A stretch of DNA of 64,000 nt, taken from assembly GCF_055900595.2 (NCBI RefSeq), contig NZ_CM148325.1. One strand, 5' to 3'. Made by a program: the position numbers and the translations under genes. This document shows, piece after piece, positions 11,757 to 61,160 of the stretch (positions are counted from its first letter, which is position 1; each line of letters opens with the position of its first letter). The notes beneath the pieces were generated by a model. It saw nothing but the letters and a program-made list of their open reading frames with translations. It searched no databases and was not told the origin of the DNA.

Positions 11757-11824
11757 ACCCGCATTGCGTGCATTTGCCGGGCGCAGCACAAACGCCTGCC
11801 CCGGCCAACCATACCGGAACTGCT

Positions 11825-13903
11825 ATGTCACAGACACTTGCACTCCATCCCGTGAAAAAGCGGGATGCGATTTTCCTTTGGGTTTTGCTGGGCTGGCTGG
11901 CATTTATCCTGTTGCCGAGCTGGAGCCTCGATTATGGCCTGCTGGAGTCCACGAGTGATGAGATCCTCGAGGCTTATGGCTGGTCGCATTTTAATATCAG
12001 CTGGCTGTGGTATTTATTACCGAGTCTGTTGCTGGTTCGTCCGTTTCGTGAGGCCACACGCGAACAGCGTAGTCGTCATTATTTTGATGCCAGTTGGGCA
12101 TTGCTCTGTATGGCGTTTATCGTCATCAGCGCCACCGTGGCTGGACGCGGTTTAGGCTACGCCGCCATCGTGCTGTTTATCGAATTAAGCGCGATAATGA
12201 CGCTGGCCTTAACCCGCCTCGAATGGCTGGGTGGCGACCGCTTTGTGATCGGCTCGCTGATTGCGATTGTGGCGCTGATTGGCATTTTTATCGTCTGGCC
12301 GAGCATCGCCATTTTTATCCCGATGTTCACCAACGACGCGGGAGAGTTCGCCCCACTGGCGTTTATGAATGTGCTCTCGCAGGCCCATATCATTCAGGTG
12401 ATCGTCAACTCTATCGTCTTATCGATAGCGGTGGGTATTGGCTGTACTTTCTTCGGTCTGGTGCTGGCGATATATACCACGCGCATCGCTAAACGCAGCG
12501 CCGTAATCGGCCGCATCTTTTCCATTCTGCCAATTGTCACGCCACCGTTTGTGGTCGGCTTAGGCGTTACGCTCATGATGGGGCGCTCCGGCTACATAAC
12601 GGAATTTATGGTGGAGTGGTTTGGGCTGACCAACACCAACTGGCTGTATGGTTTTACCGGGATCTGGCTGGCACAGGTCCTGGCATTTACGCCAATGGCT
12701 TTTATGATCCTCGATGGGGCCATTAAAACCATTCATCCCTCGCTGGAAGAAGCCTCCTACACCCTGCGCGCCAGCCGCTGGCAAACCTTTAACGGTGTGT
12801 TTGTGCCGTTGTTAAAGCCCGCGCTTGCCAATGCCTTTTTAATCGTTGTGGTGCAGTCACTGGCTGACTTCAGTAACCCGCTGGTGCTTGGCGGCAACTT
12901 CGACGTACTGGCGACGCAAATTTACTTCTACATTACCGGCTCGCAGCTGGATTATCAGGCCGCCAGCACCCTTGGCGCTTTCCTGCTGCTGTTCTCGCTA
13001 CTGGTGTTCTGCGTCCAGTATATGTGGATTGGTAAACGCTCTTACGTCACGGTTTCCGGAAAGTCCTACCGCGGCGATGTCCAGCCACTACCGGTCACCC
13101 TGGTGTGGAGCGTGGTCGCCATACTTGCGATATGGATTGCCTTTAACGCCCTGCTCTATGGCAGCATTTTCTACGGCAGCTTCACTGTGAACTGGGGCGT
13201 TGACTACACCCTGACGCTGGATAACTTTATCAAGTTATTTGGTCAGGGGATGAGCGACGGCGCGTGGCCTTCACTGTTAGATACCTTGCTCTACGCCGGG
13301 ATTGCCGCCCCCATTACCGCTATCTTTGGCCTGCTCATCGCCTGGGTGGTGGTGCGCCAACAATTCAAAGGCAAAAAGACCATAGAGTTCACCACCATGT
13401 TGTGCTTTGCCGTACCGGGTACAGTGGCGGGTGTCTCGTATATTCTTGCCTTTAATAGCGCCCCGGTCTATCTCACCGGAACGGCAGCAATTGTGATTAT
13501 TTCGATGGTGATGCGCAACGTTCCGGTGGGTATTCGCGCCGGGATTGCAGGTCTGGGGCAGATCGACAAATCGCTGGATGAAGCCTCACTTAGCCTGCGT
13601 GCGGGTTCCCTGCGAACCATTACGCACATTTTACTGCCGTTGTTACGCCCAGCTATTCTCTCGGCCCTGATTTACAGCTTTGTGCGGGCTATCACGACGG
13701 TCAGCGCCATCGTCTTTCTCGTCACGCCGGACACACGCGTGGCAACCGCCTACATCCTTAACCGCGTAGAAGACGGCGAATATGGCGTAGCCATCGCCTA
13801 CGGTTCGATTCTGATCGTGGTGATGCTGGCGATTATTTTCCTCTTTGACTGGCTGATCGGTGAAGCACGTATTTCCCGTTCTAAAGCCAAAAACCAGGCG
13901 TAA
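11825..13903 (+). CDS. afuB: ABC transporter permease with two fused permease domains, AfuB/FbpB family
   Basis: About 692 aa polytopic protein; start chosen at ATG 11825 (MSQTLALHP), GTG 11768 is the alternative. Confidence 0.75.
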
Positions 13904-14961
13904 TGGAGCGCACTATGAGTCAGAAAAATTTTGTGGAACTGCGCAACGTCACTAAACGATTCGGCAGTAATAGGGTTATCGACAATATCAATCTCACCAT
14001 CCCACAAGGGCAAATGGTGACGCTGCTCGGTCCTTCCGGATGCGGCAAAACCACCATTCTGCGTCTGGTTGCCGGGCTGGAAAAACCGAGCGAAGGGCAA
14101 ATTTTTATAGATGGCGAAGATGTCACGCATCGTTCCATTCAGCAACGCGATATCTGCATGGTGTTTCAGTCATACGCTCTGTTCCCACATATGTCGCTGG
14201 GCGAAAACGTTGGCTATGGGCTGAAAATGCTTGGCGTGTCGCGTAGTGAAGTGAAGCAGCGGGTGAAAGATGCGCTAGCAATGGTGGATCTGGAAGGATT
14301 CGAAGACCGCTATGTCGACCAGATTTCCGGTGGTCAGCAACAGCGTGTGGCTCTGGCCCGTGCGTTGATCCTTAAGCCTAAAGTGCTGCTGTTTGATGAG
14401 CCGTTAAGTAACCTCGATGCCAACCTGCGTCGCAGCATGCGCGATAAAATCCGCGAGCTGCAAAAGCAATTTAACATCACTTCGCTCTATGTGACTCACG
14501 ATCAAAGTGAAGCTTTCGCGGTGTCCGACACCGTGTTGGTGATGAATAAAGGTCACATCATGCAGATTGGTTCACCGCAGGATCTCTATCGTCAGCCCGC
14601 CTCCCGCTTTATGGCAAGTTTTATGGGCGACGCCAACCTGTTCCCGGCGAACTTTAGCGAAGAGTATGTCGATATCTACGGTTATCGCCTGCCGCGCGCG
14701 GCGCATTTCCCGGCGCAAGGTAGCGGCACCGTCGGCGTTCGCCCGGAAGCCATCACCTTAAGCAATCACGGCGAAGAGAGTCAGCGTTGTGTTATTCGCC
14801 ATGTCGCCTACATGGGGCCGCAGTACGAAGTGACCGTAGAATGGCATGGTCAGGAGATTTTATTGCAAGTCAACGCCACCCGTTTACAGCCCGATATTGG
14901 TGAGCACTATTACCTCGAAATCCATCCTTACGGGATGTTTGTTTTAGCGGATGCGGCATAA
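13903..14961 (+). CDS. afuC: ABC transporter ATP-binding protein, AfuC/FbpC family
   Basis: 352 aa; Walker [10 protein letters not shown], signature [15 protein letters not shown], Walker B LLFDEP; TAATG overlap with afuB. Confidence 0.85.
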
Positions 14962-14973
14962 AAATAGCACATA

Positions 14974-15010
14974 AACGGTCCCAACCTGTCTTGAGGGACC
15001 GTTCACCTGT
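14974..15010 (+). terminator. Hairpin after afuC (AACGGTCCC / GGGACCGTT, 12-nt loop) followed by CACCTGTTT
   Basis: 9-bp perfect stem 13 bp after the afuC stop. Confidence 0.45.
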
Positions 15011-15045
15011 TTAGACGTCGGACAACAATTATTCTCAGGTGTTAT

Positions 15046-15094
15046 ATACTATAGGGGGGTATGCATTGACATATAGCATACCCCCCTATAGTAT
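15046..15094. promoter_or_regulatory. frmR operator/promoter: 19-bp perfect inverted repeat with G6/C6 tracts around TTGACA
   Basis: ATACTATAGGGGGGTATGC-N11-GCATACCCCCCTATAGTAT; centre holds consensus -35 TTGACA; lies 27 bp upstream of frmR ATG. Confidence 0.7.
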
Positions 15095-15120
15095 ATTGCG
15101 TGCAGATGATGAGGTGCGAA

Positions 15121-15396
15121 ATGCCCAGTACTCCGGAAGAGAAGAAAAAGGTCCTTACTCGAGTTCGTCGTATTCGGGGGCAAATTGATGCTCTGGAACG
15201 GTCGCTGGAGGGTGATGCCGAATGCCGTGCCATACTCCAACAGATCGCTGCCGTTCGGGGCGCGGCTAACGGGCTGATGGCAGAAGTGCTTGAAAGCCAT
15301 ATCCGGGAAACGTTTGACCGAAATGACTGCTACAGCCGCGAAGTCAGCCAATCCGTTGACGACACTATTGAACTGGTTCGTGCCTATCTTAAATAG
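15121..15396 (+). CDS. frmR: Formaldehyde-responsive transcriptional repressor (CsoR/RcnR family)
   Basis: 91 aa [31 protein letters not shown]...; the track ORF from GTG 15100 adds a 7-aa extension I do not use. Confidence 0.92.
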
Positions 15397-15400
15397 CTGA

Positions 15401-16540
<1,140 letters not shown>

Positions 16541-16632: not shown

Positions 16633-17466
16633 ATGGAACTCATTGAAAAACATGCCAGCTTTGGCGGCTGGCAAAATGTGTATCGGCATTATTCCCAATT
16701 ACTGAAATGTGAAATGAATGTCGGCGTCTATCTCCCACTAAAAGCCGGGAATGAAAAATTGCCGGTACTGTACTGGCTTTCGGGCCTGACCTGTAACGAG
16801 CAGAATTTCATTACTAAATCGGGGATGCAACGTTACGCGGCTGAGCACAACATTATTGTTGTTGCGCCAGACACCAGTCCGCGAGGCAGTCATGTCGCAG
16901 ATGCCGACCGTTATGATCTCGGGCAAGGTGCCGGGTTTTACCTGAACGCAACGCAAGCGCCGTGGAATGAACATTACAAAATGTATGATTATATCCACAA
17001 CGAGCTGCCGGATTTAGTGATGCAACATTTTCCGGCAACGGAAAGAAAGTCAATCGCGGGTCATTCAATGGGCGGCCTGGGCGCGCTGGTGCTGGCGTTA
17101 CGTAACCCAGATGAATATGTCAGCGTCTCGGCATTTTCGCCCATTGTCTCCCCATCGCAAGTACCGTGGGGACAGCAAGCCTTTGCCGCGTATCTTGGTG
17201 AAAATAAAGAAACCTGGATGGATTACGATCCGGTGAGCCTTATTTCACAAGGTCAACGCGTTGCGGAAATCATGGTTGATCAAGGATTGAGTGATGATTT
17301 TTACGCAGAACAGCTGCGGACTCCAAATCTTGAAAAGATCTGCCAGGAGATGAATATCAAAACGTTAATCCGTTATCACGAGGGTTATGATCACAGCTAT
17401 TATTTTGTCTCCAGTTTTATTGGCGAGCATATTGCCTACCACGCCAATAAACTGAATATGCGTTGA
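16633..17466 (+). CDS. frmB: S-formylglutathione hydrolase (esterase)
   Basis: 277 aa with GHSMGG serine-hydrolase motif. Confidence 0.92.
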   Translation: MELIEKHASFGGWQNVYRHYSQLLKCEMNVGVYLPLKAGNEKLPVLYWLSGLTCNEQNFITKSGMQRYAAEHNIIVVAPDTSPRGSHVADADRYDLGQGAGFYLNATQAPWNEHYKMYDYIHNELPDLVMQHFPATERKSIAGHSMGGLGALVLALRNPDEYVSVSAFSPIVSPSQVPWGQQAFAAYLGENKETWMDYDPVSLISQGQRVAEIMVDQGLSDDFYAEQLRTPNLEKICQEMNIKTLIRYHEGYDHSYYFVSSFIGEHIAYHANKLNMR

Positions 17467-17467
17467 G

Positions 17468-17785
17468 CATCCGCGCACGCCAGCCGGATGCGGCGTGAAC
17501 GCCTTATCCGCCTACATTTCGCCCATAAACCGTAGGCATGATAAGACGCGCATAGCGTCGCATCAGGCATCTGCGCACAGCTGCCGGATGCGGCGTGAAC
17601 GCCTTATCCGCCTACATTTCGCCCATAAACCGTAGGCATGATAAGACGCGCATAGCGTCGCATCAGGCATCTGCGCACAACTGCCGGATGCGGCGTGAAC
17701 GCCTTATCCGGCCTACATTTCGCCCATGAGCCGTAGGCATGATAAGACGCGTCAGCGTCGCATCAGGCATCTGTGCACGGCTTAT
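17468..17785. repeat. BIME cluster: three tandem ~102-bp units of REP palindromes
   Basis: Unit GCCGGATGCGGCGTGAACGCCTTATCCG...GCATCAGGCATCTGCGCAC repeated three times with point differences. Confidence 0.85.
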
Positions 17786-19724: not shown

Positions 19725-19818
<94 letters not shown>

Positions 19819-60801: not shown

Positions 60802-61160
60802 GCCTGATGCGCTACGCTTATCAGGCCTACAGATTCTTGTGCCATTCGTAGGCCGGATAAGGCGTCCACGCCGCATCCGGCAATGGTGACAAATGCCTGA
60901 TGCGCTACGCTTATCAGGCCTACAGATTCTCGCGCCACTCGTAGGCCGGATAAGGCGTTCACGCCACAACCGGCAATGGTGACAAATGCCTGATGCGCTA
61001 CGCTTATCAGGCCTACAGATTCTTGCGCCACTCGTAGGCTGGATAAGGCGTTCACGCCGCATCCGGCAATCGTGACAAATGCCTGATGCGCTACGCTTAT
61101 CAGGCCTACAGATTCTTGCGCCACTCGTAGGCCGGATAAGGCGTTCACGCCGCATCCGGC
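60802..61160. repeat. BIME cluster: four tandem ~92-bp units
   Basis: Unit GCCTGATGCGCTACGCTTATCAGGCCTACAGATTCTTGCGCCACTCGTAGGCCGGATAAGGCGTTCACGCCGCATCCGGCAA repeated four times; track ORFs 60748-61263 and 60783-61205 run through it. Confidence 0.88.

Follow-up and report, generated by a model that had tools for sequence, protein, structure and literature searches.

A 53-bp perfect palindrome upstream of Escherichia coli frmR corresponds to the two-site FrmR operator of the frmRAB promoter

What is the role of the long, perfect palindrome that surrounds the −35 hexamer in front of frmR? It could be a single operator, two operators, a structure-forming element, a terminator or a dispersed repeat, and we addressed these readings in a window of the E. 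coli chromosome (the whole stretch of DNA analysed, 64,000 nt). The palindrome is the published double FrmR site of the E. coli frmRAB promoter, an element that is already known and no discovery of ours. We consider it very probable that these 53 bp act as a two-site FrmR operator of the sigma-70 frmRAB promoter, with repression relieved by formaldehyde. The anatomy of the element, the gene identities, the conservation of the sites and the dispensability of the symmetry come from the present analysis; binding, release and chemistry come from the literature.

A repeat finder and an exhaustive inverted-repeat scan placed the two arms at 15044–15064 (ATATACTATAGGGGGGTATGC) and 15076–15096 (GCATACCCCCCTATAGTATAT), each of 21 nt, 100% complementary and 11 nt apart. 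The whole element therefore spans 53 bp (15044–15096) and reads ATATACTATAGGGGGGTATGC-ATTGACATATA-GCATACCCCCCTATAGTATAT, and in the exhaustive scan complementarity ended on the outside at GTT/TGC and on the inside at A/A. The first-pass annotation had described 19-bp arms in a 49-bp element: the sequence ATACTATAGGGGGGTATGC (15046–15064) and its exact reverse complement (15076–15094) are indeed present, but the arms had been drawn two bases short on their outer sides. It had correctly read the 11-bp centre (ATTGACATATA, 15065–15075, plus strand), which holds a consensus TTGACA at 15066–15071, as well as the G6 (15054–15059) and C6 (15081–15086) tracts. Its impression that such perfection is unusual was also sound, since the exhaustive scan of all 64 kb, with loops of up to 20 nt allowed, found the runner-up among perfect inverted repeats to have arms of just 10 nt. 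The naive chance expectation for a 21-nt perfect inverted repeat is about 3e-7 (64000 x 21 x 4^-21, for 64 kb and 21 loop sizes), and the palindrome is thus far beyond chance. Folded as single-stranded DNA, it forms a 21-bp hairpin of −21.5 kcal/mol (z = −7.25 against shuffles), a stability that follows trivially from the inverted repeat.

Each arm contains one 17-bp unit, ATACTATAGGGGGGTAT at 15046–15062 and ATACCCCCCTATAGTAT at 15078–15094. The distal one, ATAC-TATAGGGGG-GTAT, carries the G6 tract and lies directly upstream of the −35 hexamer, and the proximal one, ATAC-CCCCCTATA-GTAT, carries the C6 tract and fills the promoter spacer. Within each unit, a short inverted repeat surrounds the G/C tract, and in Escherichia the two cores match at 17/17 positions in mirror orientation. 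By our count the site centres are 32 bp apart (15054 to 15086), the published value being 31 (Denby 2016). A type I operator is defined by ATAC-N9-GTAT around a G/C tract (Denby 2016; PMC11127321), which we found at both sites in the form of a 6-bp homopolymeric G or C tract, and the operator overlaps the core promoter of the operon that encodes its cognate DUF156 repressor, with FrmR as the first gene. Judged by their sequence, both 17-bp units thus fit the type I operator of the CsoR/RcnR (DUF156) family. The 2017 sort-seq work on this promoter reportedly defined two sites of 19 bp for the repressor, the first located ahead of the −35 and the second overlapping the −10.

A promoter scan of 14900–15500 predicted a single sigma-70-like promoter on the plus strand, with TTGACA at 15066–15071, a 17-nt spacer and TAGTAT at 15089–15094 (10/12 matches); an alternative −10, TATAGT at 15087–15092, would leave a spacer of 15 nt. 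The −35 falls in the middle of the palindrome, and the final 6 nt of the proximal 17-bp site, inside the right arm, make up the −10. Hence the earlier description of an element wrapped around the frmR −35 is right as far as the central hexamer goes, but it leaves out the −10, which is covered as well by the end of the right site. The predicted transcription start falls at about 15099–15101. Counting 29 nt from the repeat centre (15070), in keeping with the −29 of Denby 2016, leads to 15099, 5 nt past the predicted −10, the start itself being a prediction.

The first gene downstream, frmR (15121–15396, plus strand), is preceded by a Shine-Dalgarno GAGG at 15111–15114 and encodes the 91-aa formaldehyde-responsive repressor of the DUF156/CsoR-RcnR family (RefSeq WP_001141271.1). 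Its product matches the NCBIfam equivalog NF008464 at 189 bits (cut-off 133) and Pfam PF02583, and is identical to the crystallised EcFrmR (PDB 5LBM; E = 4e-55 across residues 1–91), with only 68 bits on the RcnR model (cut-off 138). The co-transcribed targets follow on the same strand: frmA, for S-(hydroxymethyl)glutathione dehydrogenase (15431–16540; TIGR02818 at 743 bits), and frmB/fghA, for S-formylglutathione hydrolase (16633–17466; TIGR02821 at 395.6 bits). The RefSeq annotation is consistent with all three assignments.

For the E. coli protein, binding to this promoter has been demonstrated. EcFrmR binds a Pfrm PCR fragment specifically, with a Kd of ~220 nM and no binding to PydhY, and formaldehyde enhances its dissociation from Pfrm via Pro2-Cys35 methylene bridges (Denby 2016, PMC5146963). 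The same study describes a "large inverted repeat centred at -29", numbered relative to the predicted start, as tandem type I FrmR sites (Fig. 6a) and models two tetramers on it. With frmR directly downstream, the demonstrated binding and release support the core proposal of the first-pass annotation, an FrmR operator that overlaps the promoter of frmR itself; a single operator for the FrmR tetramer, as it was then worded, does not fit a palindrome made of two 17-bp sites and modelled with two tetramers.

Further support comes from engineered promoters. When a pair of ATAC-N9-GTAT sites was transplanted into J23100, a constitutive promoter, with the first site ahead of the −35 and the second within the spacer and overlapping the −10, expression of FrmR repressed the promoter completely and an aldehyde lifted the repression (PMC11127321, a biosensor study of 2024). 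According to a review (PMC8601185), sort-seq identified critical repressor binding sites in the frm promoter (Rohlhill 2017). In one report, a truncated PfrmR that kept both sites lost repression, for which the authors also blame titration of FrmR by the multicopy plasmid, a shortage of repressor to which they largely ascribe their null results; upstream or flanking DNA may contribute to repression, as in the wrapping by RcnR. No nucleotide-resolution footprint of EcFrmR on the frm promoter was found in the literature examined (the word "footprint" occurs 0 times in Denby 2016), and therefore the assignment of the sites rests on motif logic, modelling, sort-seq and transplants.

The closest known system is E. 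coli K-12 Pfrm itself (Denby 2016, Sci Rep 6:38879), which is the same locus, with 52/53 bases identical, the same spacing to the frmR ATG, the same FrmR (WP_001141271.1), the same G/C tracts flanked by ATAC and GTAT, and the −35 and −10 in the same arrangement with them. The difference is an A at window position 15077, where the present sequence has C and the repeat is perfect over 21 nt. In Salmonella Typhimurium, the frmRA operator-promoter (frmRAPro) has a C6 tract and a T/A-rich inverted repeat; FrmR binds there, depends on the flanking repeat for doing so and comes off with formaldehyde. A 33-bp probe in which the C6 tract is flanked by this repeat takes up two tetramers of Salmonella FrmR on its single site, and binding is lost when one flank is mutated (Osman 2015/2016, PMC4528141, PMC5016687). 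The published text on frmRAPro thus describes a single C6-tract site with two tetramers, whereas E. coli has two mirror sites, and the two repressors have diverged (90 bits between them against 186 bits for the E. coli protein with itself). The E. coli RcnR operator between rcnR and rcnA, as quoted in Denby 2016 from Iwig & Chivers 2009, belongs to the same repressor family and consists of tandem TACT-G6-N-AGTA, with two sites per promoter and one tetramer per site. Its inner spacing of 7 nt is that of frm (TACT-N7-AGTA for RcnR, ATACT-N7-AGTAT for frm), but its centres are 19 bp apart instead of 32 bp and its effector is Ni/Co, not formaldehyde.

How general this architecture is was assessed by scanning one genome per species with FrmR, which gave 80 loci from alpha-, beta- and gammaproteobacteria. 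Salmonella is absent from this set because its FrmR is too diverged, and its operator is known here from the text of the papers alone. We counted exact ATAC-N9-GTAT motifs within 130 nt upstream of the frmR start, with 2145 windows of 130 nt from the same loci as controls, and did not require a G/C run (≥3) within the N9, since such a filter drops interrupted tracts such as GTGGAG. The motif was present in 65/80 species, against 5/2145 control windows. The consensus of the sites is ATACTCCCC(T/C)ATAGTAT, with the 7-nt inner spacing of the RcnR motif TACT-G6-N-AGTA, and in every case the sites overlap or abut TTGAC-like and TATAGT-like promoter elements.

The two sites are unequally distributed. 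The proximal one is near-universal, whereas the distal one, which together with it flanks a TTGAC-like −35, occurs at 17/80 frmR loci. In the one-site architecture, the site begins at or just after TTGACA and extends into the −10 region, as seen in Tatumella, Pasteurellaceae, Brucella/Ochrobactrum, other alphaproteobacteria, Pseudorhodoferax, Xenophilus and Variovorax. Two sites that bracket the −35 are 32 bp apart in Escherichia and Deefgea and 33–35 bp apart in Erwinia, Pantoea, Providencia, Edwardsiella, Serratia, Aeromonas and a cassette shared by an Edwardsiella plasmid, Enterobacter and Morganella. In that plasmid-type cassette the mirror sites again match at 17/17 positions, with GTGGAG/CTCCAC replacing G6/C6, and in several other genera the mirror match is just 13–15/17. 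In Erwinia endophytica the sites (ATACTGGGATATAGTAT and ATACTGGTGTATAGTAT, at −79 and −46 from the frmR start) are direct repeats, with 15/17 matches in direct and 10/17 in inverted orientation. This species is a natural control, and shows that the large palindrome is not obligatory. In FrmR regulation the conserved core is therefore the proximal site, to which some lineages have added the distal site and the large palindrome.

Near-identical frmR genes and promoter regions were also found in unrelated genera, namely a Citrobacter MAG, Klebsiella grimontii and Maribrevibacterium, in which the spacer of the distal site is 10 nt rather than 9. A second such set comprises the Edwardsiella anguillarum plasmid, Enterobacter and Morganella, with GTGGAG/CTCCAC tracts and sites 34 bp apart. 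Going by sequence, these sets indicate that frm cassettes move horizontally together with their own two-site operator.

The same comparison bears on how the two sites are occupied. Denby 2016 (PMC5146963) also suggested that one tetramer might bridge both E. coli sites by its two faces, the sites being farther apart than the 19-bp-spaced rcnR-rcnA sites. A single D2-symmetric FrmR tetramer would then grip both sites and loop or wrap the ~15 bp around the −35, and both orientation and spacing would be needed. The centre-to-centre distance of 32 bp, about three helical turns, would suit such an arrangement, and so would the concerted change of the arms, which carry G6/C6 in Escherichia and GTGGAG/CTCCAC in the Edwardsiella-plasmid/Enterobacter/Morganella cassette with fully inverted cores (17/17) in both lineages. 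However, spacing ranges from 32 to 35 bp among two-site promoters and helical phase is not conserved, the direct sites of Erwinia endophytica lack the orientation in question, and the proximal site alone suffices in most taxa. Moreover, a 15-bp loop between faces ~3 nm apart would probably need extreme bending, and the Salmonella probe loads two tetramers (PMC4528141, PMC5016687). We therefore regard bridging by one tetramer as unlikely, and occupation of the two sites by separate tetramers remains the preferred reading.

Variation within Escherichia tells which part of the element is kept. The 53-mer was found in 5134/5426 complete E. coli genomes, adjoining frmR in all records inspected. It is perfect in 3554 of the 5135 matching records, and the other 1581 (~31%), K-12 included, carry 1–3 mismatches. 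The K-12 allele, with C>A at 15077 immediately next to the proximal core, accounts for 1033 records and 15076 G>T for 120; both positions belong to the inner end of the right arm, outside the 17-bp core. In the six variant sequences that we read, the changes lay outside the 17-bp cores except in one rare strain, which has three changes, all in the left arm. In other species of Escherichia the arms stay perfect and the variation falls in the centre (TTGACAC); in E. albertii it affects the inner left end and a single C of the tract. Thus, most E. coli carry the perfect 21-nt form and not the K-12 sequence, and the cores are the part kept across E. coli variants. As alleles with 1–3 mismatches are common, perfect symmetry is not required.

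These data also weigh against a role for the palindrome as a DNA structure. The first-pass annotation had pointed to a potential cruciform, which in its fullest form would be extruded under negative supercoiling, aided by the G6/C6 tracts, and would destroy or mask the −35 and −10, making the promoter sensitive to supercoiling with or without FrmR. The perfect 21-bp arms do give each strand a stable hairpin, with the folding energy and z-score quoted above, and the centre is AT-rich. Yet an 11-nt unpaired centre raises the barrier to cruciform extrusion, nearly a third of the E. coli records have imperfect arms, a single site, or a pair of directly repeated ones, is all that many taxa possess, and no cruciform at Pfrm is reported in the literature that we found. 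With the large palindrome dispensable in other lineages, the suggestion is left without support and we hold it to be very improbable.

The context of the locus separates the palindrome from the upstream gene. E. coli strain Z0117EC0005 has the entire 160-nt intergenic stretch at 100% identity, and the right-hand 93 nt of this stretch are matched in 5391/5426 complete E. coli genomes, beside frmR every time. The upstream gene, which encodes an fbpC-like ABC ATPase and ends at 14961, is replaced by yaiO in K-12, and between strains with differing upstream genes homology restarts at ~15029, 15 bp ahead of the palindrome. Therefore, the palindrome belongs with frmR and not with the upstream gene. 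A terminator or insulator hairpin against read-through from that gene (fbpC-like here, yaiO in K-12) into frmRAB, for which a long GC-containing stem 83 nt past the upstream stop codon might speak, is hard to reconcile with an element that travels with frmR. In addition, no T-run follows the stem on either strand (TTGCGTGC on the plus strand, AACACCTG on the minus strand), the terminator scan did not call the palindrome and called another hairpin at 14923–14937, and relatives with a single site lack the hairpin. We give this reading even less credence than the cruciform.

The flank itself showed several features. The fbpC-like gene is part of an ABC-transporter island (~11768–15029) upstream of the frm operator, together with genes for a substrate-binding protein and a 711-aa permease. 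In the matching RefSeq strain the island comes after a uhpC-like gene and a MASE1 sensor kinase gene, and at this position K-12 has yaiO and neighbouring genes. The island flank is common to only 449/5426 complete E. coli genomes, with its junction ~15 bp upstream of the palindrome. Just past the fbpC-like stop codon, at 14974–15003, a perfect stem of 9 bp (AACGGTCCC / GGGACCGTT) closes a loop of 12 nt, and the hairpin at 14923–14937, which is short and terminator-like, lies within the 3' end of the fbpC-like gene. It is possible that these two hairpins are terminators of the upstream operon.

Finally, the notion that the element is one copy of a REP/BIME- or MITE-like dispersed palindrome and came to lie near frmR by chance has the palindromic, intergenic nature of the element and the nearby REP arrays (17467–17782) in its favour, but is next to negligible given one copy per E. 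coli genome (median 1, highest 2), no second copy in the window, no Rfam match at the element at gathering thresholds where naRNA4/REP matches occur elsewhere in the window, and a motif tied to frmR across three proteobacterial classes. The copy number just given refers to places per genome; two of the ~5135 matches to the 53-mer were on plasmids, and at least one genome had two copies. One apparent orphan copy, a match to the palindrome only with no feature beneath it, turned out to be a normal frm locus; it had looked orphaned because the self-complementary palindrome was aligned on the opposite strand by BLAST.

The REP sequences of the window are ordinary E. coli arrays. In the frmB-yaiL intergenic region (17467–17782), three REP/BIME-type units of ~100 bp each are arranged in tandem; two match Rfam naRNA4 (RF02564) on the minus strand, and four more naRNA4 matches lie elsewhere in the window. 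Sequence of the same type is found at 19740–19816 and 60851–61106. The units also produce spurious, near-identical small ORFs at 17495–17635 and 17595–17729.

Taken as a two-site FrmR operator, the palindrome would work as follows. When formaldehyde is absent, both sites would be filled by FrmR, most likely with a tetramer on each, as suggested by the geometry, the modelling and the transplant experiment; the two tetramers loaded on the single-site Salmonella probe speak against this stoichiometry. Bound FrmR would cover the flank of the −35, the spacer and the −10 and would thereby probably exclude RNA polymerase sterically, with the result that frmR is autorepressed and frmA and frmB are repressed too. 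Formaldehyde would form the Pro2-Cys35 methylene bridges in FrmR and move the DNA-contacting basic residues apart, and the modified FrmR would leave the DNA, allowing frmRAB to be transcribed. The large perfect palindrome would then be a by-product of two near-identical inverted sites, with no functional unit of its own.

Primary papers already describe the element, its anatomy and its role (Denby 2016; Osman 2015/2016; Rohlhill 2017), and the frm operator is a synthetic-biology part in routine use, with biosensors for formaldehyde and methylglyoxal built on it. What the present analysis adds is comparative: a conserved proximal core, a lineage-specific distal site and palindrome, and the perfect form as the majority allele of E. 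coli. One lead remains in the symmetry, which extends past the 17-bp cores in most E. coli, and in the arms, which differ in concert between lineages (G6/C6 versus GTGGAG/CTCCAC). Mirror symmetry might be upheld beyond independent selection on the sites, either by hairpin-templated (quasi-palindrome) correction in replication or by a single-tetramer sandwich that loops the −35. We think this unlikely, a shade more so than bridging by one tetramer considered by itself; if true, Pfrm would offer a natural system in which to study how palindromes are homogenised or how the CsoR/RcnR fold binds DNA with two faces. Among the solved structures of the CsoR/RcnR family returned by our sequence search there was no complex with DNA, and the frm operator would be a good substrate for settling how a tetramer of this family grips DNA.
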